Shown here: positions 1 through 19,565 of the stretch, in pieces
How positions within the stretch are numbered: the first letter of the stretch is position 1
How the letters are laid out: each line of letters begins with the position of its first letter
Source: Halomicronema hongdechloris C2206
Lineage (GTDB): Bacteria; Cyanobacteriota; Cyanobacteriia; Phormidesmidales; Phormidesmidaceae
Length of the DNA stretch: 32,000 bases
Direction of reading: 5' to 3'
Assembly (NCBI RefSeq): GCF_002075285.3
Contig: NZ_CP021983.2
Coordinates: forward strand, 2,100,001-2,132,000
Program-made: the position numbers and the translations under genes
The notes under the pieces: generated by a model
What the model was told of the DNA's origin: nothing
Databases searched by the model: none
The model's input: the letters and a program-made list of their open reading frames with translations, nothing else

Positions 1-482
1 GTGTAGATCACATAGCTGAGCTGCTCGAGTGCGGTAACTGGAGCAGGAGGATAGCTGGGGCTCTCAGCAATGCAGTCCCAATCGGTGTCTAGGCACAGAG
101 GGGAAACTGAGGTGGGTAGCACGCCAACGTGAGCTGCTTGCGTTAGCAAACAACGGGCCTGTGCGTCTTCTAGGATATAGGCCAGTCGCTCTTGAGGGTG
201 GCTCGGATCCAGAGGCACATACGCACCCCCCGCTTTCAGCACCCCTAGCAGTGCAATCACCATCGCCACCGAGCGCTCTAGACATACCCCTACTAAGGTT
301 TCAGGTCCCACGCCTTGGCCCTGCAGGTAATGGGCCAATTGATTGGCCCGACGATTCAACTCGTCATAGGTCAGGTGCTGCTGCTCAAACACTAGCGCCA
401 CTGCCTCCGGGCTGCGCTCCACTTGCGCTTCAAATAACTCATGGAGGCAAGCCTCTGAATACTCAGCCTCCGTCTGATTCCA
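1..482 (-). repeat. Copy 1 (cut by the window edge) of the near-identical Gly A-domain coding repeat
   Basis: By eye, 1-392 is identical to 14077-14468. Positions 430-482 match copy 2 (11344-11396) better than copy 3. Confidence 0.9.
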
Positions 483-1949
483 GTCAACTAAAATATGCCG
501 TTGTTCTTGTTCGCTAAAGAGGGAAAGCTCTGATATAGGTAATTTATAGTCAGTAACAACAGACGCTAATAAATTTTGGAAATGTGAAGTTAGGTCAGCA
601 ATAGTAATTTCATTAAATAAATCTAGACTGTACTCTACTTGTCCTCGAATTGCTTGATCGACTTCAGACAAATTAAAACGTAATTCAAATTTTGTTGTTT
701 CGCTTTCTATTGGAAAAGTCTCTAAGTTCAAGCCAGACAGCCTTAGTTCATCTACAGAAGCAAGCTGAAAATCAAACTTGACTTGAAATAGTGGATTGAC
801 TCGACTGAGATCTCGTTCGGGCTTTAAATACTCAACTAATCTTTCAAAAGGCAGATCTTGATGAGCATAAGCTTCTAGTGTTACTTCACGAACTTTTTGT
901 ACTACCTCTTGAAAGGTAAAACTGCTGTTCAGCTTTGTTCGTAGCACTAATGTATTTACTAAGAGGCCAATTAATCCCTCAGTTTCGATCTGGTTTCGAT
1001 TAGCAATATCAGTGCCTATAACAATGTCTTCTTGATTGGAATATTTATAAAGTAAGATCTTAAATGTTGTCAATAGTAAGACAAACAAGCTTATCCCTTC
1101 TTGGGCACTCAGTTGCTTCAACGCTGCAGTAAGCGGTCTTGACAATGTAATAGGATATCGACCTCCACGAAATGTTGGTGTAGTTGGTCGAGACTTATCC
1201 GTCGGAAGTTCTAGCATCGACATATCAGCAAGCTGCTGGTGCCAATAGCTCAGCTGTTTTTCTAATCTCTCTCTCTGTAGCCATTGCCGTTGCCAGAGTG
1301 CCCAATCCGCATATTGAATTGGCAAATCAAGCAGGGGAGACGGTTCACCTTTTGAAAACGCTTCATAGAGGGCCTTAAATTCTCGTGTTAGGATGCCCAA
1401 AGACCAGCGATCAGCAATAATATGATGAAGTGTTAGTAGCAACACATGATCTGTCTCACCTAGACGCAGAAGAGCAAGCCTCGAGGATGATTGAGAAAGA
1501 TCAAAAGGCAGCTGTGAAATTTGTCTAACTAAATCTTGAGATTCTGAAGTTAGCTGAGGTACTTGAGTCAGATCAAAAACAGGCAATCTCACAGAAGTTG
1601 ACTCAATAACCTGCATGGGGTTTCCTTCATCGTCGCTTATAAAGCGAGTTCGCAAGGTTTCATGGCGCCTGAATAGCTCATGAAAAACTCGATACAGTAT
1701 TGCTATTTTAAGCTCACCCCGAAGACGTAGTGCTAAAGGAATATTGTAGGCTGTGTTCGATGGATCGAGTTGCTGAATGAACCATAATCTTTGTTGAGCA
1801 AAGGATAAAGGTGGATTATCTGAGCCTTCTCGCTTAGGAATTATCTGAGACTCGGAATACTGCAATTGCTTTTGCTTTAGCCGAAGCTCAAGCAACTTCC
1901 TTTGCTTGGGTGATAGGGTGGCAATTTGTTGAGAAAGATCTTCTGACAT
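1..1949 (-). CDS. NRPS, 3'-truncated by the window edge: N-terminal docking-like helix, C domain, and the first ~150 aa of a Gly-type A domain
   Basis: Not in the supplied ORF track because it has no stop inside the window. My own reverse-strand translation from the ATG at 1947-1949 reads MSEDLSQQIATLSPKQRKLLELRLKQKQLQ..PLSFAQQRLWFIQQLDPSNTAYNI..LHHIIADRWS (1401-1427)..IANRNQIETEGLIGLLVNTLVLR..AYAHQDLPFERLVEYLKPERD..LVDWNQTEAEYSEACLHELFEAQVERSPEAVALVFEQQH.. with no stop codon seen down to position 1. The frame matches the repeat copies inside the 9510-16043 NRPS. Confidence 0.9.
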   Translation of the reverse strand, partial: MSEDLSQQIATLSPKQRKLLELRLKQKQLQYSESQIIPKREGSDNPPLSFAQQRLWFIQQLDPSNTAYNIPLALRLRGELKIAILYRVFHELFRRHETLRTRFISDDEGNPMQVIESTSVRLPVFDLTQVPQLTSESQDLVRQISQLPFDLSQSSSRLALLRLGETDHVLLLTLHHIIADRWSLGILTREFKALYEAFSKGEPSPLLDLPIQYADWALWQRQWLQRERLEKQLSYWHQQLADMSMLELPTDKSRPTTPTFRGGRYPITLSRPLTAALKQLSAQEGISLFVLLLTTFKILLYKYSNQEDIVIGTDIANRNQIETEGLIGLLVNTLVLRTKLNSSFTFQEVVQKVREVTLEAYAHQDLPFERLVEYLKPERDLSRVNPLFQVKFDFQLASVDELRLSGLNLETFPIESETTKFELRFNLSEVDQAIRGQVEYSLDLFNEITIADLTSHFQNLLASVVTDYKLPISELSLFSEQEQRHILVDWNQTEAEYSEACLHELFEAQVERSPEAVALVFEQQHLTYDELNRRANQLAHYLQGQGVGPETLVGVCLERSVAMVIALLGVLKAGGAYVPLDPSHPQERLAYILEDAQARCLLTQAAHVGVLPTSVSPLCLDTDWDCIAESPSYPPAPVTALEQLSYVIY

Positions 1950-1987
1950 GACTAGATCCAAATTTGACTATTTCTCTTTGAATTATC

Positions 1988-3058
1988 TTAGTAAGTCTCA
2001 GCCATTCGTCTGGTTGGACTCTGAAAATTATCTTTTAGTTCTTTAAGGTGTGGCAACCCACTCATGACTGCATCAACATCAGGATTGAAATCAATTAGGC
2101 AAGCTGCTTCATCGACTCCAGCTTGCTCAAGCCGCTTAACCATTGTTGCGCAGGTTTCTTGTGAGCCGATCAGGGTTCTTCCTTTCAGCCATCCTTCGTA
2201 GGCAAACGACAACAAGCTGTTGATGTCGTCATCTGAAAACTCTTTCAAGCTGATATTAACATTAAGCCCTTTTGCCAACTGTTCTAGCAATCCAAGGTGG
2301 GTCTTTAGATAGCTATAAAAAGGCTGCCTAACCTGCTCCTTAACCGTGTCAAAATCGTCTCCAACAAAGGTGTGTAGCATCATCGCTACTTTTTTGGCGT
2401 GGGGATCATGTCCATGTTCAGCTAAAGTTTGACGATAGCCCTGTATTTGCGCAGCCACTTCTTCTAAGTTTCCGCTTAGGAGAGAAGTCAACACATTGGC
2501 CCCCACTTCACCAGCCTTGAGGAAGGTGTTAGTCGATTGACAAACGATCCAAGTCGGGAGTTCGGGTTGAAGGGGCTTGGGAAATGTTTTCAGCTGGAAA
2601 GCCTTCCCTTCTGGATCTAACAGCTCTATAGGTTCCCCAGCCCATAGCTTTTGCAATGCGCTGATACCATTCCACATCGTATCTTTGCGATTCCCATAGC
2701 TTTCGTTAGACAAGACAAAGTCATCTAGGGTCCAGCCCGAGGCAAAGGCAAGGTCAACCCTACCCTGAGACAGATTGTCCACGACGGCCCATTCTTCAGC
2801 CACCCGAGCCGGATTATGCAACGGCATCACAACACTGCCTGCTCTGAGTCTGACCCGCTCTGTGATCATGGCCAGGGCCGCACTGGTGAGTGAGGGATTG
2901 GGATAGAGCCCACCAAAAGGATGAAAGTGGCGCTCTGGCGTCCATAGGGCAGAGAAGTGATGCAGTTCTGCAAATTTTGCACTTTCGAGCAATAGCCGAT
3001 ATTTGTCAGGCTGATCAGTTGACCCGTCACCAGAGAAATAAAATAAGCTGAAATCCAT
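1988..3058 (-). CDS. Luciferase-like (LLM-class) flavin-dependent monooxygenase of the natural-product-cluster type
   Basis: 356-aa ORF. The N-terminus MDFSLFYFSGDG..KYRLLLESAKFAELHHFSALWTPERHFHPFGGLYPNPSL..AGSVVMPLHNPARVAEEWAVVDNLSQGRVDLAFASGW is typical of bacterial luciferase-like monooxygenases found in NRPS/PKS clusters. It lies 41 nt downstream of the PKS and 38 nt upstream of the next NRPS. Confidence 0.8.
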   Translation of the reverse strand: MDFSLFYFSGDGSTDQPDKYRLLLESAKFAELHHFSALWTPERHFHPFGGLYPNPSLTSAALAMITERVRLRAGSVVMPLHNPARVAEEWAVVDNLSQGRVDLAFASGWTLDDFVLSNESYGNRKDTMWNGISALQKLWAGEPIELLDPEGKAFQLKTFPKPLQPELPTWIVCQSTNTFLKAGEVGANVLTSLLSGNLEEVAAQIQGYRQTLAEHGHDPHAKKVAMMLHTFVGDDFDTVKEQVRQPFYSYLKTHLGLLEQLAKGLNVNISLKEFSDDDINSLLSFAYEGWLKGRTLIGSQETCATMVKRLEQAGVDEAACLIDFNPDVDAVMSGLPHLKELKDNFQSPTRRMAETY

Positions 3059-3099
3059 GGAAAGCTCCCAGTTGTTCTATAGTTTGCGATCTAGCTAGA

Positions 3100-6000
3100 T
3101 TACAGTTCCTGAGCCAGTGCTTGATCGATCTCCTCTGGAGACAAATTCTGAATCTCTTCAACAAACGCCGCGATTTCGTGTTCCGTCTCCAGGTGCGACT
3201 GTTGTTCGCTAATGATGGTGGCTAGTCCTGCAACGGTCGGTGCATCGAACAAAATAGCCTTTAACGGCAGATCGACCTGGAATATCTCTCGTAAGCGAGA
3301 GGTCACCTGTACAGCCAGCAGAGAATGGCCCCCCAGCTCAAAGAAATTATCATGAATACCGACCTGCTCGATGCCAATTAGGGTTTGCCAGATGTGAGCG
3401 ATCGCAACTTCTACATCATTCTGAGGAGCCACATAAGTACTCTGAACATTAGGCCTAGCATGCTGTTTAAGCACCTCTAGGCTTTTCTTAGGTTCAAGTT
3501 TAATCGATTGATCAAATCGTTGCTGCAAGTCTCCAGTAGAAGCGACAACTTGACCAGCATCAACCCTAGCTAATACCCGTAGAAAAGCTTCCCAGACTTC
3601 CCCTGGTGTCATCGCCAATTCAGTTGACAAATCAGGAAGCGATTCACTTTGAGATTCTGTTTTTCGCCCAGTGTGAAACGCTTGACGATTGACGCTTAAC
3701 CAGGGAATCTCTTTTTGCATCTGATTCTGTTGATGGATAATAGCATCCATACTTAGATAAGCTGCAGCATAGTTAGCTAGTCCTAAACCTCCTAAAACAC
3801 AAGACATTGAAGACTGTAAGAGACAGAAGTCTAGTGAAATTCCTTGTAAGGCATTGCATAGACTCGATAAGCTATAAATCTTCTGAAAGTGTTGTTCACA
3901 ATCGGTTAGATCTATTTCTTCAATGGCAGACACTGCTTTTTCGGCTGTAATTTCGGGAAGATATAGAACACCATGAATCTTGCCAAAGTGTTCCAGAACT
4001 TGATGAATTGCTGCCTGAATTTGATCGGTTTGAGTATCATTGAATTCGATCAGAAATACCTCAGCTTTATCCTCTAATACCTGTAACTGACGAATAATAT
4101 CACTCGTCTGATCTGAACCATCATGGGTATCTAACCAAGCTTGCCAACTCTCTCGATGTGGAAGTCCCAGATGACCAATGAATGCAATCTTTGCCTTAGT
4201 TTTTTCTATTAGAGATTGAGCAAAGGACAATCCCATACCATCAACAAGATCACCAACTAGTAAATAAATTCCATTTTGTCTTAATCGTGGGTGAATCTTC
4301 TGTGTAGCAGGTAAACGGATTGGTTCGAAGGTTTGAGTCCAGCGATGATTCCCTCGATAGGCAATCACCGGATGAGTCGAGGATGTTGTGCATTCCGCTA
4401 GTAATTGCTCTATTAGAGTATCAATGTATGCCGACTTAGGTACCTGAATATCAATACTGCGGCAAGTAAGCTGCGGATACTCTTGAGGGATGACTTTACA
4501 TGGTCCTAAGACAGTGGCCTTTGCTGGAATTAAGGATTCTCCTCCAGTGACCTCATATATCTGATCGGTCACAACATATATCTCGAGAGGATTGGTTAGC
4601 TGTTGAGCAATTGCCCGCGTGAGAAATAGGAGACTGTAAAAACCCCGCTTTTGGTAGGGCTGAAATTCTTGAGCTGAAGACGGTAACGGTGTTTCGGATT
4701 CAGCCGTCACTCCCCATAGATGAACGATTTTCTCCGGAATTTGGTCCGAAGCTTTTAGGGCTTGAATTAGAGCGTCGTAACTCTGTTGCTCCTGGGGATT
4801 AATTTCATAGCAGATGGAACTCAATTGCGAAAACTGCTTACCTAAGGAGACCGTAATAACCGAGTGACCCAACTGATTTAAGCGGTTCGCTAGTCCATCT
4901 CCAATACCACAGGTATCTGTCAATAACAACCAGTGATGGGGCTGGTTGACATCTGGTTTGGGTAGCAATGTTCGCTGCCAGGTTGGCAAATAAAACCAAT
5001 CTGCCGGATCAGGTTTGCGCTTTAGTTCGGACAAATGAGGCTGAGAAGATTCTGCCGATCCCTGAGGTGGATCGATCCAATAGCGCTTACGCTCAAAGGG
5101 ATAGGTTGGCAACAGTACCCGTCGCCGCGATTCGTGGGCTGTAAATCCGCTCCAGTTCGCTGGCACCCCTGCTAGCCAGAGGCGACCTAAGGTGGTTAAA
5201 ATCCCTGCTTGATCAGAGGTAGTGTCCTGAGGATGTCGTAACGACGTTAGCACTAAAGCCTCTGTCGTTTGTTGCTTTGCGAACGTACTCAAGGTTCTGC
5301 CAGGACCCACCTCCAGGAAAATGTACTTGGGCTCCTGTAGTAGAGTTGCCATTCCCGCAGCAAACTGCACCGGTTGACGCAGATGATTAGCCCAGTAGCT
5401 CGGATTGGTGGCTTTTGCTGCTGTCAACCAGGTGCCCGTAAGGTTAGAAACTACGGGAATTTGGGGAGGATTGAGGGAGAGGCTCTGCAGCTGCGCCATG
5501 AAAGGCCTGAGTACAGGCTCCATCATGGATGAATGGAAGGCATGGGAGGTATGCAGTCGACGACTCTTAATACCATGGTCTGATAAACGCTGCTGCAACG
5601 CTTCGATGGCGGCGTCAGACCCTGACACCACTGATAAAGCAGGGGCATTGAGACTGGCAAGAGAGAGCTGATCACTGAGCCAAGGATGAATCTCTGCTCC
5701 AGATAGTGGCACCGAGAGCATAGCACCGGCAGGCATTTGCTGCATCAAGCGTCCCCGGGCTGCAACTAGAGTCAGTGCATCTTCTAGGGAAAAGATTCCA
5801 GCTAAACAGGCCGCAACATATTCACCAATGCTGTGGCCGATCATGGCCTCTGGCCGAATTCCCCAACTCATCCACAGTTGAGCCAGAGCATATTCCACGA
5901 CAAATAGAGCCGGTTGCGCGATCGCTGTCTGCCGTAGTTGAGCCGCAGCATCGTCCTTTGGACTATCGCCATAGAGTACCTGGCGTAGATCTAGACCGAG

Positions 6001-7731
6001 ATGGGGGTGCAGTAACTCGCAACATCCATCCACCTGCTCTCGGAACACGGGTTCATGCTCGTAGAGCTCTCGTCCCATGTGGAGATATTGGGCCCCCTGA
6101 CCAGAGAACATAAACACAATTGGCTGATGCTCATCGTCACTGAGCTGGGTCAGAACCGATGGCGACGTGGGATCACCTAAGGCTTGGACTGCTGTCTCAA
6201 GGTTTCGACAGACCACAAGGCGACGATGCTCAAATGGGCGCCGCCCCACCTGAAGGGTATAGGCGACATCTGCCAGGTTCGCATCAGGATGCTGTTGGAG
6301 ATAATCCGCCAACTGAGTTGTGGCAGTTTCTAAAGCCGTGGGTGTTTTGGCTGACAGTGGTAAGATTTGCCAGGGTCGAGACGCCCCGGAGGGAGGGAGA
6401 GCTGGGGCCTCTTCCAACACAACATGGGCATTGGTGCCACCGATGCCAAAGGAACTAATTCCAGCCCGCCGTGGAGTGCCATTGGCTGCCCACGGCTGTA
6501 GGCGAGTATTGACATAGAAGGGACTGGCCTCAAAGTCAATTTGGGGATTTGGTTGCTCAAAATGAAGACTCGGGGGAATCTGTCGATGTTGGAGGGCTAG
6601 AACTGTTTTAATCAACCCAGCCACGCCGGCAGCGGTATCTAAGTGGCCAATGTTGGTTTTCACAGATCCAATGGCGCAGAAGCCACAGCGATCTGTGCCA
6701 GTGCGGAATGCCTGGGTCAGTGCCGCCAGCTCAATGGGGTCGCCAAGGGAAGTCCCAGTACCATGAGCTTCAATGTAGCTGATGGTATCAGGATTGACTT
6801 CAGCTACCGCCAGGGCCTCAGAGATAACAGCGGCTTGACCATCAATGCTGGGGGCAGTGTAGCCGATTTTCTGCGCCCCATCGTTATTAATGGCAGAGCC
6901 TTTGATCACGGCTAAGATGCGATCGCCCTCTGTTAATGCATCCTCCAAACGCTTGAGGGCCACTACTCCAACACCATTGCCAAATACTGTACCTTTGGCA
7001 TTGGCATCAAAGGCTCGACAGTGACCATCGGCAGACGCAATCCCACCCTCTTGATAAAGGTAACCGGTTTTCTGGGGCACTTTGATGGTAACGCCACCTG
7101 CGATCGCTAGATCACTCTCACCGTTAAGCAGACTTTGACAGGCTAAGTGCACAGCAACCAACGAGGTAGAGCAGGCCGTCTGAATCGTTAGGCTCGGCCC
7201 CTTAAGATTTAATTTATAAGAAATGCTAGTAGATAGATAGTCTTTATCATTGCGGGTCAGTACTTCTAGCCCAGCCGCAGATTCTAACCACTGACGGTTG
7301 GGATATAGATTATTGAGAGAATAGGTGCTGAGGCCGGCTCCGGTGAATAGGCCAATTGGACCTGAGTACTGCTCCGGGTCATAGCCGGCTTGCTCAAGTG
7401 CTTCCCAGACACATTCAATTAAGAGGCGTTGCTGGGGATCGGCAATCTCGGCCTCCCTAGGGGTAAAACCAAAGAAATCAGCATCGAACTTGTCAATGTC
7501 ATCCAGCAGAGTTCCTGCTTTGACATAGTGGGGATCGTTGAGCATGTTATCGTCAACCCCTGCAGCCAATAATTCTTCATCTGCAAAGAAAGAGATTGAT
7601 TCAATTCCCCCCTGCAAATTTCGCCACAGTTGCTCAGCATTGTTGGCTCTGGGAAAACAACCTGACATGGCAATGATGGCAATTTCATCTTTCGGAGATA
7701 TATTTTTGTTTATCTGCAAATCAGTTGCCAT
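3100..7731 (-). CDS. Type I PKS module KS-AT(malonyl-type)-KR(degenerate)-T with an acidic C-terminal tail
   Basis: 1543 aa. KS ~6406-7686 (IQTACSTS Cys187, EAHGTGT, NIGHLD). AT ~5287-6123 (GHSIGE Ser634, HAFHS). KR-like region ~3517-5010, including the structural subdomain. Carrier ~3202-3438 (FFELGGHSL Ser1470). Tail: EHEIAAFVEEIQNLSPEEIDQALAQEL. Confidence 0.95.
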   Translation of the reverse strand: MATDLQINKNISPKDEIAIIAMSGCFPRANNAEQLWRNLQGGIESISFFADEELLAAGVDDNMLNDPHYVKAGTLLDDIDKFDADFFGFTPREAEIADPQQRLLIECVWEALEQAGYDPEQYSGPIGLFTGAGLSTYSLNNLYPNRQWLESAAGLEVLTRNDKDYLSTSISYKLNLKGPSLTIQTACSTSLVAVHLACQSLLNGESDLAIAGGVTIKVPQKTGYLYQEGGIASADGHCRAFDANAKGTVFGNGVGVVALKRLEDALTEGDRILAVIKGSAINNDGAQKIGYTAPSIDGQAAVISEALAVAEVNPDTISYIEAHGTGTSLGDPIELAALTQAFRTGTDRCGFCAIGSVKTNIGHLDTAAGVAGLIKTVLALQHRQIPPSLHFEQPNPQIDFEASPFYVNTRLQPWAANGTPRRAGISSFGIGGTNAHVVLEEAPALPPSGASRPWQILPLSAKTPTALETATTQLADYLQQHPDANLADVAYTLQVGRRPFEHRRLVVCRNLETAVQALGDPTSPSVLTQLSDDEHQPIVFMFSGQGAQYLHMGRELYEHEPVFREQVDGCCELLHPHLGLDLRQVLYGDSPKDDAAAQLRQTAIAQPALFVVEYALAQLWMSWGIRPEAMIGHSIGEYVAACLAGIFSLEDALTLVAARGRLMQQMPAGAMLSVPLSGAEIHPWLSDQLSLASLNAPALSVVSGSDAAIEALQQRLSDHGIKSRRLHTSHAFHSSMMEPVLRPFMAQLQSLSLNPPQIPVVSNLTGTWLTAAKATNPSYWANHLRQPVQFAAGMATLLQEPKYIFLEVGPGRTLSTFAKQQTTEALVLTSLRHPQDTTSDQAGILTTLGRLWLAGVPANWSGFTAHESRRRVLLPTYPFERKRYWIDPPQGSAESSQPHLSELKRKPDPADWFYLPTWQRTLLPKPDVNQPHHWLLLTDTCGIGDGLANRLNQLGHSVITVSLGKQFSQLSSICYEINPQEQQSYDALIQALKASDQIPEKIVHLWGVTAESETPLPSSAQEFQPYQKRGFYSLLFLTRAIAQQLTNPLEIYVVTDQIYEVTGGESLIPAKATVLGPCKVIPQEYPQLTCRSIDIQVPKSAYIDTLIEQLLAECTTSSTHPVIAYRGNHRWTQTFEPIRLPATQKIHPRLRQNGIYLLVGDLVDGMGLSFAQSLIEKTKAKIAFIGHLGLPHRESWQAWLDTHDGSDQTSDIIRQLQVLEDKAEVFLIEFNDTQTDQIQAAIHQVLEHFGKIHGVLYLPEITAEKAVSAIEEIDLTDCEQHFQKIYSLSSLCNALQGISLDFCLLQSSMSCVLGGLGLANYAAAYLSMDAIIHQQNQMQKEIPWLSVNRQAFHTGRKTESQSESLPDLSTELAMTPGEVWEAFLRVLARVDAGQVVASTGDLQQRFDQSIKLEPKKSLEVLKQHARPNVQSTYVAPQNDVEVAIAHIWQTLIGIEQVGIHDNFFELGGHSLLAVQVTSRLREIFQVDLPLKAILFDAPTVAGLATIISEQQSHLETEHEIAAFVEEIQNLSPEEIDQALAQEL
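3398..3405. repeat. HIP1 octamer GCGATCGC
   Basis: Exact match read from the sequence. Confidence 0.95.
3517..5010 (-). other. KR-like domain with degenerate cofactor and catalytic motifs (probable KR0)
   Basis: The Rossmann motif reads IYLLVGDLVDGMGLSF where the paralogous PKS (20442-25955) has VYLITGGLGGLGLAIA. The catalytic stretch reads SSMSCVLGGLGLANYAAAYLSMDA versus SSINAITGGLGQVDYSAGNAFLDA, so Tyr is kept and Asn is replaced by Tyr. The core lies at ~3727-4269. Confidence 0.6.
5918..5925. repeat. HIP1 octamer GCGATCGC
   Basis: Exact match read from the sequence. Confidence 0.95.
6919..6926. repeat. HIP1 octamer GCGATCGC
   Basis: Exact match read from the sequence. Confidence 0.95.
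7100..7107. repeat. HIP1 octamer GCGATCGC
   Basis: Exact match read from the sequence. Confidence 0.95.
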
Positions 7732-7801
7732 TATTAATTCCTAGTCTCTACTTTAAACACGTACTGAGTAGTTGGTCTTTTGAATATATTAGGTAGCTCA
7801 C

Positions 7802-9457
7802 CTACACAACTCTGACAGGCCCTTCTAGTGAAGTTTCTATTTCTAACCTGGCCGCAATTTGAAGTTGATCATCTAAAACAGCGTCGATATCAGTTTCACT
7901 CGTTAGTGGATTTGCCAATACTGCCCTCAGAGCTACAATTGTTACTTCTTGATCAAAATGACGAATGCTTTTAACCGTGCGAGAGATGAAGGTTCGGCCA
8001 ACCTGGCGTTGAACCTTTTGCAGTCGCTCATTGAACCGGCTAATGACGCAGTAATCACTTTTAATTAATTGTTTATGAGTAGCACGTTCTCTAAATGGCT
8101 CCGGAATGTACTGATAAACTAATAAATTAATATCAGGCTTAGCAATTAACTCAAACTCAGGCATGGTGCGAATGCGCTCTGCCATGTATTGGGTCTTGCG
8201 CAGTCCTTCATCGATCAAGAACTCATATCCTTCTACCCCAATCAAGTTCAGCGCTGCATGTAAGAATAGGGCCATACCTGGTCGAGACCCTTCTAAGGAT
8301 CGCTTACCGAGATCCAGGGAGCCATTACGAATGGTGTAACTGGCACTTTTTTCAATTGCTTTGGCCAAGTGAGGATTGCGAAAAAATACCATGACAATCC
8401 CCATGGGTAAGTACATCTGCTTATGACCATCGATAGTTACTGAATCTGCTTGCTCAATGCCTGCTAACTTATGGCGATGCTGGCGAGAAAATAGTAGAGG
8501 ATCTCCCCAAGCTGCATCAACATGGAAATGAGTTTTAGCACTCCGGGCAATAGAGGCAATATCATGCAGTGGATCTATACCACCAGCATCGGTTGTGCCT
8601 GCAATTCCAATTATTGCGAGAATGAGTTTTCGTTGCGATTGACAATGCAAAACTGCCTGATGCAATAACTTTAGATCAATATGATTTCTATCGTCAACCG
8701 GAATTTTGATTAAATTTTGTGAGCCGATTCCCAGTAAATCAGCTGCTTTGTCGAAGGAATAATGCATGAGGTTGGAGCCAATGATGGTAGCTCCTTTGTA
8801 TCCATAGAAACTCAGAGCTGCGGATAAGCCTTCCTGTTCAACCCCAGCAAATTTACCACGAGCTCCCAAGGCATTATTCCGTGCACACCATAGGGCTGTA
8901 ATATTGGCAACTGTTCCTCCCGAGACTAAAATCCCTAATGTGCTCTGGTGGTTATGGATATGTTGTTTATAAAAATCGGTGGAGTATTGATAAATTAATC
9001 GGTGCATGCGCCCTAAAGACTGACGCTCACAGGGACTTAGAGACTTAGCAGTTTCTACCTTGACAGCATTTTGATTAAGCGCCGTTACTAACTTGGCTAA
9101 AGGCCGTACAAAATACGGCAAGGCCGATGTCATGTGACCAATAAATCGTGGTGAGGAAGTATGCACCGCATGGGTAACAATATCTTCAGCTAGGGATGGA
9201 AAATACTGTTCAAACTCGAAAGGCGCTCTCGGCAACTCACTGTCGCTAAATCTCTCCATTAAGTGCTCGAAGTCAATGTCGGTCGTTGATAAATTTTCAT
9301 GTAAAAAAGCTTGGGCCAATACGGCTAGCTTCTCTTCGATCGCTTGCTCAACCAATTGGGATTGAGCAGACGGATTGAATAGCTGCATGATCCTTTTACT
9401 AGCCTGACAAGGCTGAGAAGCTATAAAATTCCTAGAAGGATAGTTCATTCTCATCAA
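7802..9457 (-). CDS. Group II pyridoxal-phosphate-dependent amino-acid decarboxylase (PanP / 2,4-diaminobutyrate / glutamate decarboxylase-like)
   Basis: 551 aa. Motifs: HTSSPRFIGHMTSALP, STLGILVSGGTVANITALWCARN, HVDAAWG, and the PLP-lysine motif SVTIDGHKQMYLPMG (S-x-x5-K pattern). An alternative start is Met24 (ATG top at 9388, MQLFNPSAQ..). Confidence 0.8.
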   Translation of the reverse strand: MMRMNYPSRNFIASQPCQASKRIMQLFNPSAQSQLVEQAIEEKLAVLAQAFLHENLSTTDIDFEHLMERFSDSELPRAPFEFEQYFPSLAEDIVTHAVHTSSPRFIGHMTSALPYFVRPLAKLVTALNQNAVKVETAKSLSPCERQSLGRMHRLIYQYSTDFYKQHIHNHQSTLGILVSGGTVANITALWCARNNALGARGKFAGVEQEGLSAALSFYGYKGATIIGSNLMHYSFDKAADLLGIGSQNLIKIPVDDRNHIDLKLLHQAVLHCQSQRKLILAIIGIAGTTDAGGIDPLHDIASIARSAKTHFHVDAAWGDPLLFSRQHRHKLAGIEQADSVTIDGHKQMYLPMGIVMVFFRNPHLAKAIEKSASYTIRNGSLDLGKRSLEGSRPGMALFLHAALNLIGVEGYEFLIDEGLRKTQYMAERIRTMPEFELIAKPDINLLVYQYIPEPFRERATHKQLIKSDYCVISRFNERLQKVQRQVGRTFISRTVKSIRHFDQEVTIVALRAVLANPLTSETDIDAVLDDQLQIAARLEIETSLEGPVRVV

Positions 9458-9509
9458 GAAAGCTGAGTGTGTTTAAAAAGGCCTGGCTGTTCGAATCAGC
9501 AATATGAAT

Positions 9510-12500
9510 CTAAGTTGAGCGTTGCCAATTGACTGTCTCTCGATGGCGCTGTCGCAGATGCTTCTGTTGTCTTATAGAAGCCTTTCCCTTTTTCTTGGAA
9601 GGCTTAGCCTCGCGAATCAAGTTGCTTTGACCGGCTGTTTGACTTAAATACTGGGCAAGATCACCAACAGTAGGATATTTGAATAGAGAGATTAGGGGAA
9701 ACTCACGCTGAAGTTTGTTTTGCAGTTTGCTATGGATAGCAACAACAAGTAAAGAATGTCCACCAATATCAAAGAAATTATGGTGAATACCAACCTTGTC
9801 TAGATGCAGGATATCTTTCCAAAGGTCTGCAATTATTGTCTCCAGTTCAGTCGTAGGAGCTCGATAAGTCGTGTCTAGATCAAGATTGGGGTTGAGTTTT
9901 GCCAGTCCTTTGCGATCGACTTTGCCATTGGGGGTAAGGGGCAATTCCTCTAGCAGAACCATGGCCGCGGGTACCATGTAGTCGGGCAGCTGCTCTTGCA
10001 GGTAACTCCGTAACGCTGAGGGAGAGAGACTGGCAGCTGCAGGGACGACATAGCCCACTAACTGCGGCTCGCCTGAGGCATTCTGGTGGGCAACCACCAC
10101 GGCTTGTGAGATAGCTGGATGGCGCAGCAGCACCGTTTCAATTTCACCCAGTTCAATGCGGAAGCCCCGCAGCTTCACCTGATGGTCCAGGCGACCCAGG
10201 TACTCCAGGCTGCCATCCCGGCGATATTTCACCAAATCCCCAGTCTTGTACAGACGTGCCCCAGGTGTGGGGCTAAAGGGATTGGGCACAAACTGCTCTG
10301 CTGTTAACGCCGGGCGCTGGTAATAGCCTCGGGCCAGCCCCAGTCCACCAATGTGCAGTTCTCCTGGTACCCCAATGGGAGTGGGTTGTCCGGCTTTGTC
10401 CAATACATACACCTGAGTGTTGGCAATGGGACGGCCTAAGGGCACTGTCTCACACTCAGCCGTCAGTTCACTCACCGCAGACCAAATCGTCGTCTCGGTG
10501 GGTCCATACAGGTTCCATACTCCTGCACTGCGAGCATGCAACTGATGGGCTAACTCTAACGGCAAGGCGTCCCCGCCACAGAACACTCGCAGTGCAGATG
10601 ACCCGGACCACTCCGTTGACATCAGCATCTGCCAGGTGGCTGGAGTCGCTTGCAGCACTGTCGCGTCAAATTGCTCTAGTCGCCGAGCCAAATGATGAGC
10701 ATCACAGGCGACCTCTCGACTCACCACCTCCAATCGAGCTCCTTGAAGGAGTGGCAGGTATAACTCCAAGGCTGCAATGTCAAAAGCGACGGTTGTGACT
10801 GAGACCAGTCGGTCCTCAGCCCTGAGCCCTGGATACTCAGCCATGCTATATAGGAAGTTGCTCAACGCCTGATGGGGAATCTGGACGCCTTTGGGGGCTC
10901 CGGTGGACCCTGAGGTGTAGATCACATAGCTGAGCTGCTCGAGTGCGGTAACTGGAGCAGGAGGATAGCTGGGGCTCTCAGCAATGCAGTCCCAATCGGT
11001 GTCTAGGCACAGAGGGGAAACTGAGGTGGGTAGCACGCCAACGTGAGCTGCTTGCGTTAGCAAACAACGGGCCTGTGCGTCTTCTAGGATATAGGCCAGT
11101 CGCTCTTGAGGGTGGCTCGGATCCAGAGGCACATAAGCGCCCCCCGCTTTCAGCACCCCTAGCAGTGCAATTACCATCGCCACCGAGCGCTCTAGACATA
11201 CTCCCACCAAGGTTTCAGGTCCCACCCCCTGGCCCTGCAGGTAATGGGCCAGTTGATTGGCGCGACGATTCAACTCGTCATAGGTCAGGTGCTGCTGCTC
11301 AAACACCAGCGCCACTGCCTCCGGGGTACGCTCCACTTGCGCTTCAAATAACTCATGGAGACAAGCCTCTGGATACTCAGCCTCCGTCTGATTCCACTCC
11401 ACCAGAAGACGCTGCCGCTCAGCAGAGGTCAACAGGGGTAGGTCACTAACCCGCTGCTCCGGCTGCCTCACCACCGCCGTTAACACCTGCTGCAGATGCG
11501 TGATGAGACGTGCCATGGTCGCCGCGGCAAATAAGTCGGTGTTGTACTCTAGCTGCCCTTGCAACCCCGCCTCACCCTCTTGCAGCGATAGAGTCAGGTC
11601 AAATTTGGCGCTTTCTGGAGCACTCTCGAGTACCTCCACCGCTACCCCTGGCAAGGCCAACGATTCCTGGGGCGCATTCTGCAGGATAAACATCACCTGA
11701 AACAGGGGGGAATGACTCAATGCCCGCTCCGGCTGCAGCAGTTCCACCACCTGCTCAAAGGGCATATCCTGATGGGCATAGGCCCCTAAGGTCACCTCCC
11801 GTACCCGCTGCAATACCTCCACAAAGGAGGGCTGCCCCGCCAAGGATGTGCGCAACACTAAGGTATTGACGAAAAAGCCAATCAACCCTTCCACTTCCCT
11901 ACGGGTGCGGTTGGCAATGGGAGAGCCCACCACGATGTCCGCTTGGCCGCTGTAGCGACTCAACACCACTTGAAAGGCAGCCAGCAGTGTCATAAACAGG
12001 GTGCAGTTCTGCTGCCGACTCAACTGCTTCAATCCCTGGGTTAACTCTGGGGTAATTCCAAAGGCTTGAGTCGCTCCCCGGAAGGTCTGCACCGCCGGAC
12101 GAGGATGGTCCGTGGGTAACTCAAGCACTTCCGGGGCACCTGCTAACTGCTGCTGCCAGTACTGCCGCTGTTGCTCTAGCACCTCACCGTGGAGCCACTG
12201 CCGCTGCCAAGCCGCATAGTCTAGATACTGAACCGGTAGGGGGGATAAGGAAGGGGCATGACCTGTGACAATAGCCCCATAGAGCTGAGCCACTTCTCTG
12301 ACTAAAATGCCCATTGACCAGCCATCGGAGACGATGTGGTGCATGGCAAACACCAGCACCTGCTCCTGCTGGGAACATTGCAGCAGGACGACGCGAAGCA
12401 AGGGGGGCTGGTCGAGGGAAAAAGGCTGATGGGTGATGCTCCCAGTCAGCTGTTGGACCCCTTGCTCCTGCCCTTGGGCTGTTAGGTCTTGCAGGTCGAT

Positions 12501-15500
12501 GACCGCCAGGGGCACCTCTACAGTGGGATGGAGATCTACGGCAGGATGGCCCTCTTGGCTGACAAACCCGAGGCGCAGGGCCTCATGACGCTGCAGGAGA
12601 ATCTGGAGACTGGCCTGGAGGGCGTCAATGTCAAGGGAACCGTGTAGTCGCAGGGCACTCGACAGGTGATAGAAGGGACTTTCTGGTTCGAGTTGGGCCA
12701 AAAACCACAGCCGTTGTTGGGCAAAGGAGAGGGGTAAGGGGCCGCTGCGCTCGATAGTGGTTATGGGAGGACTGGTGAGGCCCTGTTCCTCATGGAGGGC
12801 AGCTTCAATGACAGGCGCTAACTCAGCAATGGTGGGATGCTCAAAGAGGCGACGCAGGGGCACCTCTACGGCAAAGGCGTGACGCACGTGCGACATCACC
12901 CGGGTTGCCAGCAGGGAATGGCCGCCTAACTCAAAGAAGTTGCTCTGGATGCTGACGGTCTCTAGCTTCAGCACGTCTGCCCAAATGCTCACGAGCATCG
13001 CTTCGATGGGGGTGCGAGCTGCAACCGTTGCTGAAGTGTCTAGGTGCTGATACTCGGGGGCTGGTAGGGCTTTGCGGTCGACTTTGCCATTGGGGGTGAG
13101 GGGCAATTCCTTCAGCAGAACCATGGCTGCAGGCACCATGTAGTCGGGAAGCTGCTCTTGCAGGTAACGCCGTAACGCTGAGGGGGAGAGACTGGCAGTG
13201 GCAGGGACGACATAGCCCACTAACTGTGGCTCGCCTGAGGCATTCTGGTGAGCGACCACCACGGCTTGTGAGACAGATGAATGGCGCAGCAGCACCGTTT
13301 CAATTTCACCTAGTTCAATGCGGAAGCCCCGCAGCTTCACTTGATGGTCGAGGCGACCCAGGTATTCCAGGCTGCCATCGCGGCAATACTTGACTAAGTC
13401 CCCAGTCTTGTACAGACGGGCCCCAGGTGTGGGGCTAAAGGGATTGGGCACAAAGCGTTCTGCTGTTAACTCGGGGCGCTGGTAATAGCCTCGGGCTAGC
13501 CCCATGCCACCAATGTGCAGTTCACCTGGCACCCCAATGGGAGTGGGTTGTCCGGCTTTATCCAGCACATATAGCTGAGTGTTGGCAATGGGCTGGCCTA
13601 AGGGCACTGTCTCACACTCAGCCCTCAGTTCACTCACCGCAGACCAAATCGTCGTCTCGGTCGGTCCATACAGGTTCCAGACCCCTGCACTGCGAGCGTA
13701 CAACTGATGGGCTAACTCCAATGGCAAGGCGTCCCCGCCACAGAACACTAGCAATGCAGATGACCCGGACCACTCCGTTGACATCAGCATCTGCCAGGTG
13801 GCTGGAGTCGCTTGCAGCACTGTCGCGTCAAATTGCTCTAGTCGCCGAGCCAAATGATGAGCATCACAGGCGACCTCTCGACTCACCACCTCCAATCGAG
13901 CTCCTTGAAGGAGTGGCAGGTATAACTCCAAGGCTGCAATGTCAAAAGCGACGGTTGTGACTGAGACCAGTCGGTCCTCAGCCCTGAGCCCTGGATACTC
14001 AGCCATGCTATATAGGAAGTTGCTCAACGCCTGATGGGGAATCTGGACGCCTTTGGGGGCTCCGGTGGACCCTGAGGTGTAGATCACATAGCTGAGCTGC
14101 TCGAGTGCGGTAACTGGAGCAGGAGGATAGCTGGGGCTCTCAGCAATGCAGTCCCAATCGGTGTCTAGGCACAGAGGGGAAACTGAGGTGGGTAGCACGC
14201 CAACGTGAGCTGCTTGCGTTAGCAAACAACGGGCCTGTGCGTCTTCTAGGATATAGGCCAGTCGCTCTTGAGGGTGGCTCGGATCCAGAGGCACATACGC
14301 ACCCCCCGCTTTCAGCACCCCTAGCAGTGCAATCACCATCGCCACCGAGCGCTCTAGACATACCCCTACTAAGGTTTCAGGTCCCACGCCTTGGCCCTGC
14401 AGGTAATGGGCCAATTGATTGGCCCGACGATTCAACTCGTCATAGGTCAGGTGCTGCTGCTCAAACACCAGCGCCACTGCCTCCGGAGTACGCTCCACTT
14501 GCGCTTCAAATAGCTCATGGATACATTGCTGTTGCGGATAGGTAACTTCGGTATGATTCCACCCCACCAGCAACTGATGTAACTCATCTGTCCCTAATAG
14601 GGGTAAGTCTGATAATCTTGCTTGTGGATTGACAACAATACCCTCAAGCAACGCACGAAAATGCTTAACAATTCGAGTAGCAGTTTCAGGGTTGAACAGA
14701 GCTGTACTATATTCCAGTGCTCCTCTCACTTCTGGCTCAGAATCGACCATGTACAGGGTCAAGTCAAACTTGGCGGCTTGATTGTGTACCGGGAGCCAAT
14801 CCAGCGTCAAACCAGGCAAGGTTAGTTCCCTTTGGACATCTTCCTGCCAGGCAAACATTACCTGAAACAGGGGCATATGACTGAGATTTCTCTCTGGCTG
14901 AAGCTCTTCCACTAGCTGTTCAAAAGGTATATCTGCATGGGCATAGGCACCTACACATACCTCACGTACTCGATTCAGCAATTCTAAGAGATTTGGATTA
15001 CCAGAAAGATGCGTCCGCAGCACAAGAGTATTAGCAAAAAAACCAATCAGTTTTTGAATCTCACTTTGGTTACGATTAGCAATTGGGGAGCCAACACAGA
15101 TATCTTCTTGTCCAGTGTAGCGGTACAGTAAAGCTTGGAAGGCTACCAATAGAGTCATAAACAGGGTTACCCCTTCCTGGTTGCTCAGGGATCTGAGTCT
15201 ATCCGATAAGCTCGCTGATAGCTCAAAAGGGATGACTGCACCTTGGAAGCTTTGGATTGGCGGTCGAGGGCGATCAGTAGGCAGATTCAAAGCTGAAGCG
15301 CCTGCCAATTGCTGCTGCCAGTAAGAAAGCTGAGTCTGTTGTAACTTTCCCCGCAACCGATGACGCTGCCAAACTGCAAAATCTGCATATTGAATAGGGA
15401 GTTCAGATAAGGGGGGTGTTTTGCCTGTAGAAAAGGCTTCATAAAGTATTGCTAGTTCGCGGATCAGCACTCCTATTGACCAACCATCAATGGCAATATG

Positions 15501-16043
15501 ATGGATAGCAAACAGCAATAAATACTCTTGAGTATCTGTTTGTAGCAGTATGGCTCGCAGCAACGGACCAACTGCTAAATCAAACGGCTTTTGCGCTATC
15601 TCTTTTGTTAACTGTTCAATTTCAGCTTTTTGCCCAGCTTCTGACAGGGAGCGTAGGTTTACCACTGGCAGCACTACAGAGATAGTGGGATGAATAATTT
15701 GGACTGCCTGTTCTGCCACCATCTCAAACGTAGTGCGTAACGCTTCATGGCGTCGTACAATCTCATTAAGACTGTGTTCCAGGGCATTGACGTTAAGCGT
15801 ACCTGTTAGCTTTATACATGCTGGTTCACTGTAGTAGGGATTGCCAGGATCTAACTGGTGGAGGAACCACAACCTTTGTTGAGCAAAGGATAGAGGAGCA
15901 GGACCTGTTTGGGAACGTTTGGGAATAATTTCTGTTTTCGAGTAGGGATTTACTTCACCCCGTAGCCGTTTCTCGAGCAGTTCTCGCTGGGTGGATGAAA
16001 GCTTCGATCGTCGGTTCAAAATTTTATCTTTTATGTTGTCCAT
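9510..16043 (-). CDS. Bimodular NRPS C-A(Gly-like)-T-C-A(Gly-like)-T with a basic C-terminal tail
   Basis: 2177 aa. C1 ~14589-15902 (HHIAIDGWS). A1 ~13059-14531. T1 ~12798-13022 (FFELGGHSL). C2 ~11424-12746 (HHIVSDGWS). A2 ~9897-11369. T2 ~9639-9866 (FFDIGGHSL). Both A domains give hand-extracted specificity residues D-I-L-Q-F-G-L-I-W-K (from FDIAALE, VLQATP, VFCGGD, NLYGPTETTIW, NGKVDR). This is one position away from the canonical Gly code DILQLGLIWK. No E domain. Tail: KPSKKKGKASIRQQKHLRQRHRETVNWQRST. Confidence 0.95.
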   Translation of the reverse strand: MDNIKDKILNRRSKLSSTQRELLEKRLRGEVNPYSKTEIIPKRSQTGPAPLSFAQQRLWFLHQLDPGNPYYSEPACIKLTGTLNVNALEHSLNEIVRRHEALRTTFEMVAEQAVQIIHPTISVVLPVVNLRSLSEAGQKAEIEQLTKEIAQKPFDLAVGPLLRAILLQTDTQEYLLLFAIHHIAIDGWSIGVLIRELAILYEAFSTGKTPPLSELPIQYADFAVWQRHRLRGKLQQTQLSYWQQQLAGASALNLPTDRPRPPIQSFQGAVIPFELSASLSDRLRSLSNQEGVTLFMTLLVAFQALLYRYTGQEDICVGSPIANRNQSEIQKLIGFFANTLVLRTHLSGNPNLLELLNRVREVCVGAYAHADIPFEQLVEELQPERNLSHMPLFQVMFAWQEDVQRELTLPGLTLDWLPVHNQAAKFDLTLYMVDSEPEVRGALEYSTALFNPETATRIVKHFRALLEGIVVNPQARLSDLPLLGTDELHQLLVGWNHTEVTYPQQQCIHELFEAQVERTPEAVALVFEQQHLTYDELNRRANQLAHYLQGQGVGPETLVGVCLERSVAMVIALLGVLKAGGAYVPLDPSHPQERLAYILEDAQARCLLTQAAHVGVLPTSVSPLCLDTDWDCIAESPSYPPAPVTALEQLSYVIYTSGSTGAPKGVQIPHQALSNFLYSMAEYPGLRAEDRLVSVTTVAFDIAALELYLPLLQGARLEVVSREVACDAHHLARRLEQFDATVLQATPATWQMLMSTEWSGSSALLVFCGGDALPLELAHQLYARSAGVWNLYGPTETTIWSAVSELRAECETVPLGQPIANTQLYVLDKAGQPTPIGVPGELHIGGMGLARGYYQRPELTAERFVPNPFSPTPGARLYKTGDLVKYCRDGSLEYLGRLDHQVKLRGFRIELGEIETVLLRHSSVSQAVVVAHQNASGEPQLVGYVVPATASLSPSALRRYLQEQLPDYMVPAAMVLLKELPLTPNGKVDRKALPAPEYQHLDTSATVAARTPIEAMLVSIWADVLKLETVSIQSNFFELGGHSLLATRVMSHVRHAFAVEVPLRRLFEHPTIAELAPVIEAALHEEQGLTSPPITTIERSGPLPLSFAQQRLWFLAQLEPESPFYHLSSALRLHGSLDIDALQASLQILLQRHEALRLGFVSQEGHPAVDLHPTVEVPLAVIDLQDLTAQGQEQGVQQLTGSITHQPFSLDQPPLLRVVLLQCSQQEQVLVFAMHHIVSDGWSMGILVREVAQLYGAIVTGHAPSLSPLPVQYLDYAAWQRQWLHGEVLEQQRQYWQQQLAGAPEVLELPTDHPRPAVQTFRGATQAFGITPELTQGLKQLSRQQNCTLFMTLLAAFQVVLSRYSGQADIVVGSPIANRTRREVEGLIGFFVNTLVLRTSLAGQPSFVEVLQRVREVTLGAYAHQDMPFEQVVELLQPERALSHSPLFQVMFILQNAPQESLALPGVAVEVLESAPESAKFDLTLSLQEGEAGLQGQLEYNTDLFAAATMARLITHLQQVLTAVVRQPEQRVSDLPLLTSAERQRLLVEWNQTEAEYPEACLHELFEAQVERTPEAVALVFEQQHLTYDELNRRANQLAHYLQGQGVGPETLVGVCLERSVAMVIALLGVLKAGGAYVPLDPSHPQERLAYILEDAQARCLLTQAAHVGVLPTSVSPLCLDTDWDCIAESPSYPPAPVTALEQLSYVIYTSGSTGAPKGVQIPHQALSNFLYSMAEYPGLRAEDRLVSVTTVAFDIAALELYLPLLQGARLEVVSREVACDAHHLARRLEQFDATVLQATPATWQMLMSTEWSGSSALRVFCGGDALPLELAHQLHARSAGVWNLYGPTETTIWSAVSELTAECETVPLGRPIANTQVYVLDKAGQPTPIGVPGELHIGGLGLARGYYQRPALTAEQFVPNPFSPTPGARLYKTGDLVKYRRDGSLEYLGRLDHQVKLRGFRIELGEIETVLLRHPAISQAVVVAHQNASGEPQLVGYVVPAAASLSPSALRSYLQEQLPDYMVPAAMVLLEELPLTPNGKVDRKGLAKLNPNLDLDTTYRAPTTELETIIADLWKDILHLDKVGIHHNFFDIGGHSLLVVAIHSKLQNKLQREFPLISLFKYPTVGDLAQYLSQTAGQSNLIREAKPSKKKGKASIRQQKHLRQRHRETVNWQRST
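9907..11396 (-). repeat. Copy 2 of the Gly A-domain coding repeat (module 2 of the bimodular NRPS)
   Basis: Aligns with 13069-14519 at a constant offset of 3162 nt (1054 codons). 10596-11135 versus 13758-14297 showed no mismatch on line-by-line comparison. Mismatches are scattered elsewhere. Confidence 0.9.
13069..14519 (-). repeat. Copy 3 of the Gly A-domain coding repeat (module 1 of the bimodular NRPS)
   Basis: See copies 1 and 2. The encoded protein is identical to module 2 from HELFEAQVERTPEAV through WSGSSAL (~255 aa) and diverges slightly in the C-terminal part of the A domain. Confidence 0.9.
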
Positions 16044-16089: not shown

Positions 16090-17163
16090 TCAGGATTTGA
16101 TTTTTACATATTCAGGAAATGATTGAATTTGTGTAAGTTCATTTTCTAAAATTTGCAGATCCTTATTCTTTTCATTCTTTTCAATTTCCTTGAACCCCGC
16201 AAACTTATAAGACACATACATCATTCTATTGCGTTCGTTTGAAACAAACTCAGCACGCAAACGGACATGATTCCCTTTAGCCAAACTCATAATATAATTC
16301 AACATAATTGTGCCAACGCCTCTAGACATAACCCGACAAGACATCAGCAAAAGCTTTATCGTCCACACGCCTTCTAGGCATTCCAGCAGTGCTAACCCAA
16401 TTTTTCCGTAACTCCCGTACTTATCATCCAAACTTGCAATTAGCAATTTATGTTTGTCTGATTGCCGAAAATGATTGAGTTCATCATAGGAGTACGTATA
16501 GCCAGTTGTATTCAATTGATTGGTTCTAACCGTTAATTCTTCTGCTCTTTGTAAATCTTCTTCCTGGGCAGAAGAGATAGTGAAAGTCATATTAAGAGTA
16601 GCTAAAAATTCTTCTTGAGTGCCAATAAATTCTTTTTCTGCCTCGTTCCTCTCTATATCACTAAGATACATCAGCCTTCTAAATTTTGAATCCTCTGTAG
16701 TAAAACGAGGATTCATTTCTGGTTTATCTAGTAAGTCATTGAGTTCAGAGGCATTAACACAGAAAACTTCAGGAAGCGAAAAATTAACTTCTTCAAGCTC
16801 AAACATCTGATCATCAATAAAAGCAAATGCATCAATGCCAAGATTGAGTGACTTGGCAATTGCTTGAATAGAACTCGATTTAGAGTTCCAATTGATTTGG
16901 GGATAGAGAAAATACTCATGCAGCTCAAACTCTTTGAGTTGCTGCATAGCCTGAGTATAGTCATTCTTACTGGCAACAGACTGTAAGATACCTCGACTAT
17001 CTAATGTCTTAATAACATCGACTGATTTGTTTCGTAGATAAACACGCTTATCCTCTAATAAGATTCCATTCCAAAGTGTGTTGTCTAAATCCCAGACGAC
17101 ACATTTGATCATCTTTTTATCGGCTTGTTTTTGATTTAAAATTTCAGCTTTTATATGAGTCAT
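16090..17163 (-). CDS. FkbH-like HAD-superfamily (IIIC) glyceryl-ACP-forming enzyme
   Basis: 357 aa. HAD motif I: KCVVWDLDNTLWNG. C-terminal GNAT-like half with LLLMSCRVMSRGVG (the conserved SCR cysteine of FkbH-type enzymes). Starts 4 nt after the upstream acyl-CoA dehydrogenase stop. Confidence 0.8.
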   Translation of the reverse strand: MTHIKAEILNQKQADKKMIKCVVWDLDNTLWNGILLEDKRVYLRNKSVDVIKTLDSRGILQSVASKNDYTQAMQQLKEFELHEYFLYPQINWNSKSSSIQAIAKSLNLGIDAFAFIDDQMFELEEVNFSLPEVFCVNASELNDLLDKPEMNPRFTTEDSKFRRLMYLSDIERNEAEKEFIGTQEEFLATLNMTFTISSAQEEDLQRAEELTVRTNQLNTTGYTYSYDELNHFRQSDKHKLLIASLDDKYGSYGKIGLALLECLEGVWTIKLLLMSCRVMSRGVGTIMLNYIMSLAKGNHVRLRAEFVSNERNRMMYVSYKFAGFKEIEKNEKNKDLQILENELTQIQSFPEYVKIKS

Positions 17164-17167
17164 TTTC

Positions 17168-18352: not shown

Positions 18353-18355
18353 CCA

Positions 18356-19285: not shown

Positions 19286-19299
19286 ATAGTGCTAGCCAT

Positions 19300-19545: not shown

Positions 19546-19565
19546 CTTTTCAAACCTTCAATCCT

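Follow-up and report, generated by a model that had tools for sequence, protein, structure and literature searches.

Three near-identical, predicted glycine-type adenylation domains with mosaic identity in an orphan hybrid NRPS/PKS cluster of Halomicronema hongdechloris C2206

The 32,000-nucleotide stretch analyzed here (the window; contig NZ_CP021983.2 of Halomicronema hongdechloris C2206, positions 2,100,001 to 2,132,000) is part of an orphan hybrid nonribosomal peptide synthetase/polyketide synthase (NRPS/PKS) cluster, and all of the large open reading frames (ORFs) within it lie on the minus strand. No published description of this cluster was found in a literature search. Two of its genes, NRPS2 and NRPS3, carry three near-identical copies of a single adenylation (A) domain, set among condensation (C) and thiolation (T) domains, and these copies have probably been homogenized by several rounds of gene conversion (non-reciprocal homologous recombination) between direct repeats. 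Domain calls in the window were obtained from Pfam and NCBIfam scans, and genes are listed here and below in transcription order.

9510 to 16043, minus strand: NRPS2, domain order C1-A (copy 3)-T1-C2-A (copy 2)-T2, 2177 aa (Pfam matches, core motifs)
13069 to 14519, minus strand: copy 3, complete A domain of predicted Gly type, haplotype a, NRPS2 module 1 (motifs, code, alignment)
9907 to 11396, minus strand: copy 2, complete A domain of predicted Gly type, haplotype b, NRPS2 module 2 (motifs, code)
1 to 1949, minus strand: NRPS3, beginning C-A and continuing past the left window edge
483 to 1949, minus strand: C3, the C domain of NRPS3, outside the repeat (Pfam Condensation)
1 to 482, minus strand: copy 1, the N-terminal part of the NRPS3 A domain (linker end, A1 to A3), cut at the window edge (Pfam AMP-binding)

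The A-domain copies and their alignment

The copies are recognized as NRPS adenylation domains by matches to Pfam AMP-binding and AMP-binding_C and by core motifs in order: copies 2 and 3 yielded A1, A2, A3, A5, A7, A8, and A10, and the portion of copy 1 inside the window yielded A1-A2. The repeat unit corresponds to a single, complete A domain that extends from just upstream of A1 to three residues past A10 (NGKVDR), in agreement with the boundaries drawn in an initial annotation of the window. NRPS2 itself is 100% identical to protein P0001 of Halomicronema hongdechloris C2206.

The canonical glycine code is DILQLGLIWK. The code DILQFGLIWK, read from the motif positions in copies 2 and 3 as the initial annotation had given it, matches the canonical code at nine of ten positions, and DILQLGMIWK has been reported for Gly-activating domains (PMC12283262). 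The copies are predicted from this Stachelhaus code to be glycine-type A domains; NRPS2 would contribute Gly-Gly to the product, and a further Gly would follow extension by PKS2 only if NRPS3 is intact. The remaining A domain in the window, the Asn-type domain of NRPS1, resembles the copies only at the level of ordinary motifs, and therefore has no part in their homogenization.

Comparison of the copies in register and by an independent gapped alignment gave the same result. Of 1444 aligned sites, 68 differ between copies 2 and 3. The main segments of the alignment are as follows:

437 to 500 = 11351 to 11414, minus strand: end of the C-A linker, WNQTEAEY[S/P]EACL, common to copies 1 and 2 and absent from copy 3
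11136 to 11262, minus strand: ten sites private to copy 2, all synonymous, with copies 1 and 3 in agreement at every one
10593 to 11135 = 13755 to 14297, minus strand: exact tract of copies 2 and 3, from A2 to just before A5 within Acore (543 nt, 0 differences)
9907 to 10592, minus strand: C-terminal part of copy 2 (A5 to A10, including Asub), with 56 sites differing from copy 3

The exact tract is slightly longer than the block first reported (10596-11135 = 13758-14297), which also has 0 mismatches, and as far as it is visible in the window copy 1 shares this tract as well. The second block said to be free of mismatches, 1-392 = 14077-14468, likewise has none, so the pairwise nucleotide alignment bears out both. 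At the edges of these blocks the early description needed adjustment. The silent nature of the copy 2 differences was correct, although they number exactly 10 within 11136-11262 and not more than 10 within 11136-11290. Copy 1 does follow copy 2 near the linker, from 437 to ~500 rather than at 430-482, and this switch of partner mostly reflects a different endpoint of the converted tract. Copy 3 does diverge, from 14522 on and not from 14520, with a 3-nt indel in the linker. The C-terminal 686 nt, in which copies 2 and 3 are ~92% identical, had not been described in detail.

For the part of copy 1 left of base 1, the annotated NRPS3 protein, P0121, is the sole record, and the affinity of the C-terminal part of copy 1 is accordingly a protein-level placement. 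The P0121 A domain is identical to copy 3 at 354 of 355 residues (208 of 208 outside the window) and differs from copy 2 at nine; at the eight amino-acid differences of the C-terminal part that P0121 covers, the copy 1 protein follows copy 3. The protein ends in ...TAER followed by LCPIPLAPHLGPVCTRLGT and a stop, and this tail corresponds exactly to copy 3 DNA read in the +1 frame; therefore, a 1-nt deletion is placed in CGCTTTG, ~622 nt left of the window. Copy 2 DNA is unable to yield the tail, and only DNA of the copy 3 type can. As deposited, NRPS3 stops inside its A domain at 876 aa, and its orthologues are C-A-T proteins of ~1120-1135 aa. Either the frameshift is real and NRPS3 a recent pseudogene, or the deletion is a homopolymer sequencing error in a long exact repeat, where short reads have no unique placement. 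The Gly-like code ascribed to three modules loading the same residue stands, but three functional Gly modules are not assured, because the third is truncated by a frameshift in the deposited genome.

Probable gene conversion, relatives, and the path through the repeats

The longest run without a difference between copies 2 and 3 (543 nt) was not reached in any of 200,000 permutations over all sites, nor was the corresponding run of 191 third codon positions in 200,000 permutations of those positions alone. By the Nei-Gojobori method, synonymous divergence (Ks) is 0.27 in the C-terminal part (9907-10592; nonsynonymous divergence, Ka, 0.032; Ka/Ks ~0.12), zero in the centre, and 0.23 in the N-terminal part (11136-11262; Ka 0). 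Because Ks changes from 0.27 to 0 to 0.23 along the repeat, even divergence after one duplication is rejected. A variant of that scenario, in which a single recent duplication accumulated point mutations and selection preserved the identical centre, draws on the fact that the centre carries A2-A4 and most of the specificity pocket. Selection on the protein cannot fix synonymous sites, however, and 0 of 138 such sites differ in the centre where ~31 would be expected at the Ks of the flanks; the permutation of third codon positions contradicts this scenario, as do copy relationships that shift from segment to segment. We regard it as very improbable.

These shifts are most apparent for copy 1, the nearest partner of which is copy 2 in the linker and copy 3 in the N-terminal part; in the centre all three are alike, and its C-terminal part is of the copy 3 type. 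Two haplotypes are present: a, comprising copies 1 and 3, which are almost identical across at least 1.07 kb, and b, represented by copy 2, with a Ks of ~0.25 separating them in both flanks. Pairwise identity is 46-52% among the C domains adjoining the copies and 38% among the T domains. At the amino-acid level the paralogous copies are 96.9-100% identical; the best non-self A domain among 360 proteins compared is 68.7% identical, the best within 80 decarboxylase-anchored loci plus the Egbenema locus is ~60%, and metagenome contigs scanned with a degenerate pattern for the variable A2-A3 region gave no match. Paralogues that are closer to one another than to any foreign counterpart, uneven synonymous divergence, and relationships that depend on the segment are the hallmarks of gene conversion, and they uphold the initial preference for this process over a single old duplication.

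The closest related cluster is that of Egbenema bharatensis (L081), with the gene order NRPS, decarboxylase, PKS, LLM, NRPS (C-A-T), PKS, NRPS, NRPS-reductase, where LLM denotes a luciferase-like monooxygenase. Identity to the window is 67% for PKS2, 78% for the LLM, and 67-75% for the decarboxylase. C3 is closest to the C domains that follow the LLM in related clusters (54-57%, next best 48%; 64% to Egbenema P0122), and by this similarity it is the orthologue of those domains. The A domain after the LLM in Egbenema and that of module 1 in the bimodular Nostoc counterpart (L004) both have a Ser-like DVW signature, and the A domain directly before the decarboxylase is of Gly type in L004 and L005. 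We infer a spread of the Gly A domain within the Halomicronema cluster to positions occupied in relatives by other A domains (Ser-like after the LLM in L081 and in module 1 of L004). Sliding identity between NRPS3 and Egbenema P0122 revealed the expected dip at the specificity region and no crisp breakpoint.

Taken together, we consider it probable that the copies were homogenized by several rounds of gene conversion. At least three events probably occurred in all: this older spread of the Gly A domain, a recent conversion between copies 1 and 3, and a recent central tract exchanged between haplotypes a and b (the putative 543-nt conversion tract). Conversion would be near-neutral since every copy loads the same residue, and the high identity that results would promote further conversion. 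The copies are direct repeats on the same strand, with spacings of 3162, 10914, and 14076 nt (starts at 1, 10915, and 14077) that are all multiples of three; therefore, a crossover between any two of them would produce an in-frame loss or gain of modules. Such a crossover would delete or duplicate either T1-C2 or the entire segment from the decarboxylase to C3 (PanP-PKS2-LLM-C3), with the fusion in frame.

Exact repeats of this length also raise the question of whether the locus was correctly assembled, and the warning of an assembly hazard in the initial annotation was apt. The genome was assembled by MIRA from 17x 454, 41.5x Solexa (36-bp reads, 5-kb mate pairs), and 14x 454-corrected PacBio RS data, and its authors reported chimeric PacBio reads, mis-assemblies, and manual contig joins (PMC6416890). 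With such a read mix and such finishing, real copies that were similar and not identical could have had their reads merged, or the wrong path could have been taken through the repeat, or both. A repeat with three entries (C1, C2, C3) and three exits (T1, T2, T3) has exactly two linear resolutions. The alternative to the deposited one reads C1-A-T2, PanP-PKS2-LLM, C3-A-T1-C2-A-T3; it would place an NRPS of one module ahead of the decarboxylase, as in five of six syntenic loci, and an NRPS of two modules after the LLM, as in L004. Among the orthologous clusters compared, five syntenic loci have a single NRPS module ahead of the decarboxylase, and L004 has two. The 1-nt deletion in a T run within copy 1 is also a typical 454 or PacBio error.

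Several features of the repeats speak against such an artefact. At either end of each copy, unique C or T sequence is within reach of a single 454 read, the flanks differ densely enough for phasing, and the matching blocks are clean rather than interspersed with mixed sites. The reading frames of the two complete copies remain open, with Ka/Ks far below 1, and identical A-domain pairs are known in other NRPSs (P0002, below). The deposited path gives coherent haplotypes (a-a, a-a, b-b), and the alternative requires two recombinant copies; this coherence favours the deposited order, short of proof. Orthology of the C and T domains did not discriminate between the two resolutions. We therefore judge an assembly artefact to be unlikely as the source of the mosaic.

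The weight given to gene conversion is nevertheless tempered by several points. 454 reads are too short to span the exact cores (543 nt, and at least 1 kb between copies 1 and 3), and part of the perfect identity or the order of copies could be a product of assembly, since only 14x early PacBio coverage and manual joining were available. No second strain or independent assembly of the locus was found, and past base 1 copy 1 is represented by its protein only. Furthermore, the high GC content of the unique T1-C2 segment is not explained by conversion among the copies. For users of the C2206 genome, the locus combines exact repeats of 0.4 to at least 1 kb, one alternative module order, and a possible homopolymer error truncating NRPS3; for these reasons, product prediction for the cluster hinges on the resolution of the repeats and the state of NRPS3.

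Base composition and gene content of the cluster

The repeat borders coincide with sharp steps in base composition, which the initial annotation had missed, and the segment between copies 3 and 2 is as follows (GC3, GC at third codon positions):

11397 to 13068, minus strand: T1-C2 segment between copies 3 and 2, unique sequence, GC 0.586-0.587, GC3 0.66-0.67

The A-T1-C2-A block as a whole (9907-14519) has a GC of 0.57-0.59 and a GC3 of 0.59-0.67, and visible copy 1 (1-482) has values of 0.571 and 0.588. The adjoining domains are low (GC/GC3 of 0.46/0.40 in C1, 0.43/0.37 in T2, and 0.40/0.31 in C3), and the steps are completed within ~100 nt, at 9907 and 14519. Since whole-genome GC is 54.6% (PMC6416890), it is the copies and T1-C2 that are host-like and the backbone that is atypical. 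Adjacent C and A domains in the control loci L004 and L081 differ in GC3 by no more than 0.11. GC-biased gene conversion by itself was rejected as a cause of the high GC, given that GC3 is highest in the unique T1-C2 segment.

Across the window, patches with a GC of 0.53-0.59 comprise the A-T1-C2-A block, copy 1, and the FAAL-ACP-C part of NRPS1 (27600-31271), set in a backbone of 0.31-0.46. The KS-AT region of PKS2 (5100-7000) is also raised, and its Egbenema orthologue rises similarly.

One account of the block is that it was imported ready-made, together with copy 1, from a donor of ~58% GC in which tandem near-identical Gly modules already existed. That GC and GC3 change sharply at the repeat borders, that T1-C2 is equally high, and that the control loci lack such contrast are all consistent with this idea; natural A-T-C-A exchange is on record (PMC8097286), and P0002 provides a case of tandem identical Gly A domains elsewhere. 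However, the search for a donor of the A-T1-C2-A block found none, with nothing more than 57% identical to the block. Compared domain by domain with L004, the block is as similar as its flanks (57-60%), without separation, and T1-C2-A2 is collinear with module 2 of that locus. Copy 1 lies 10 kb away in another gene, which demands at least one extra event within the cluster, and the uneven divergence of copies 2 and 3 demands conversion somewhere in any case. Such an import is, in our assessment, improbable.

A related and more tentative proposal, which we rate as possible though doubtful, is that the GC mosaic arose when an assembly line gained by horizontal transfer was recently refitted in nature, receiving an entire A domain (both Acore and Asub) and an A-T-C-A unit in exchange. 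Fusion would have taken place at the WNxTE linker and just after A10; the backbone has its closest relatives in Egbenema, Nostoc, and Fischerella. Positions that were Ser-like or otherwise different would have become Gly-Gly...Gly, leaving in-frame direct repeats poised for the gain or loss of modules. If true, the refit locus would offer field-tested fusion points that break the usual rule of keeping the native Asub and C-A linker. For studies of NRPS evolution and engineering more generally, the locus is a clean case of A-domain homogenization at the nucleotide level with marked borders (one at the C-A linker end, the other immediately past A10), and its GC contrast exposes the exchanged pieces even when no donor sequence is at hand. 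The compositional block, the frameshifted third copy, and the concrete alternative assembly path are additions to what was first described.

Around NRPS2 and NRPS3, the window contains the following genes:

25956 to 31271, minus strand: NRPS1, FAAL-ACP-C-A-T (Pfam/NCBIfam)
20442 to 25955, minus strand: PKS1, KS-AT-KR-ACP with a C-terminal FkbM-type methyltransferase domain (Pfam/NCBIfam)
16090 to 20420, minus strand: extender-unit cassette with 3-hydroxyacyl-CoA dehydrogenase, ACP, two small ORFs, acyl-CoA dehydrogenase, and FkbH
7802 to 9457, minus strand: pyridoxal phosphate (PLP)-dependent aspartate 1-decarboxylase, PanP family, after NRPS2
3100 to 7731, minus strand: PKS2
1988 to 3058, minus strand: LLM, MupA/Atu3671 family, before NRPS3

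NRPS1 has an A-domain code of DLTKIGEVGK, which is Asn-like, and with its FAAL-ACP-C-A-T organization this implies an N-acyl-Asn start unit, as predicted from the domain calls. The FkbH cassette (16090-20420) and the FkbM-type domain at the C-terminus of PKS1 (20442-21100) suggest a hydroxymalonyl- or methoxymalonyl-ACP extender unit. The cassette had no match in the fetched DNA of the 80 decarboxylase-anchored loci, and no FkbH-type gene was found among the genes called in L081. Within the cassette, the two small ORFs (18356-19285, minus strand; 160 and 140 aa) share a reading frame, with a gap of 24 nt and a single intervening stop, and this region has the lowest GC anywhere in the window. 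A GCGRTGHS motif is found in the upstream ORF, and the downstream ORF has a weak match to a sulfotransferase profile, in the C-terminal half of that profile; the pair is probably one gene of ~310 aa broken by an in-frame stop.

The decarboxylase scores above the NCBIfam cutoff for the PLP-dependent aspartate 1-decarboxylase PanP (beta-alanine supply), and none of the A domains in the window has a beta-alanine code. Its Egbenema orthologue (L081, 2418-4062) is broken across two reading frames. The LLM is a stand-alone protein encoded directly upstream of the NRPS3 Gly module (1-1949). Cleavage of Gly by a MOX domain leaves a terminal amide. MOX (LLM-type) domains embedded in Gly A domains have been reported to cleave Gly (PMC12283262), and an analogy between these and the LLM beside the Gly module is possible, limited by the Ser-like A domain that follows the LLM in relatives.

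Comparison with known systems

The locus is a further instance of a known process, the concerted evolution of NRPS/PKS domains, and not a new kind of system. Among 119 NRPS proteins of relatives with multiple A domains, five contain A-domain pairs that are at least 85% identical. These comparisons include P0025, in which an A-domain pair within one NRPS protein is 100% identical, and the metagenomic protein P0002, in which two Gly A domains are 100% identical and the C domains 72%. Near-identical repeats also occur in PKS modules of related clusters: in L019, 13233-14314 and 17929-19010 are 99.8% identical over 1082 nt, and in L018, 12079-14248 and 16743-18914 are 92.6% identical over 2179 nt. 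Like the window, P0002 has tandem Gly-type (DIL..IW) modules with homogenized A domains, although its A domain is only 60% identical to that of the window.

Concerted evolution of NRPS and PKS domains through internal recombination has been documented (Medema et al., 2014; PMC4256081). As in those systems, domains of the same type within one cluster have probably been homogenized here by internal recombination; there, paralogues group by cluster and not by position, most clearly where the product is unaffected. The present case differs in that it involves three A domains only, with one predicted substrate and with the C and T domains untouched, and in that the evidence is a nucleotide mosaic and not a tree of many clusters.

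Gene conversion of A domains is also documented in cyanobacterial microcystin synthetases (PMC3640908, and works cited in PMC8097286). The resemblance to mcyA2 and mcyB1/mcyC lies in a cyanobacterial NRPS with intragenomic A-domain recombination between modules and breakpoints around the A domain. The mcy exchanges described there alter the amino acid and thereby give toxin variants, in many strains, whereas the copies here have the same predicted residue, in one genome.

A third comparison is provided by natural exchange units, which for the most part substitute a portion of Acore and leave the C-A linker and Asub native, a single A-T-C-A exchange being listed as a rare exception (Baunach et al., 2021; PMC8097286). 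The exact 543-nt tract likewise lies inside Acore, and the compositional block may correspond to an A-T-C-A exchange. Unlike those units, the repeat in Halomicronema takes in Asub as far as A10 and, for two of the copies (1 and 2), also the C-A linker end.

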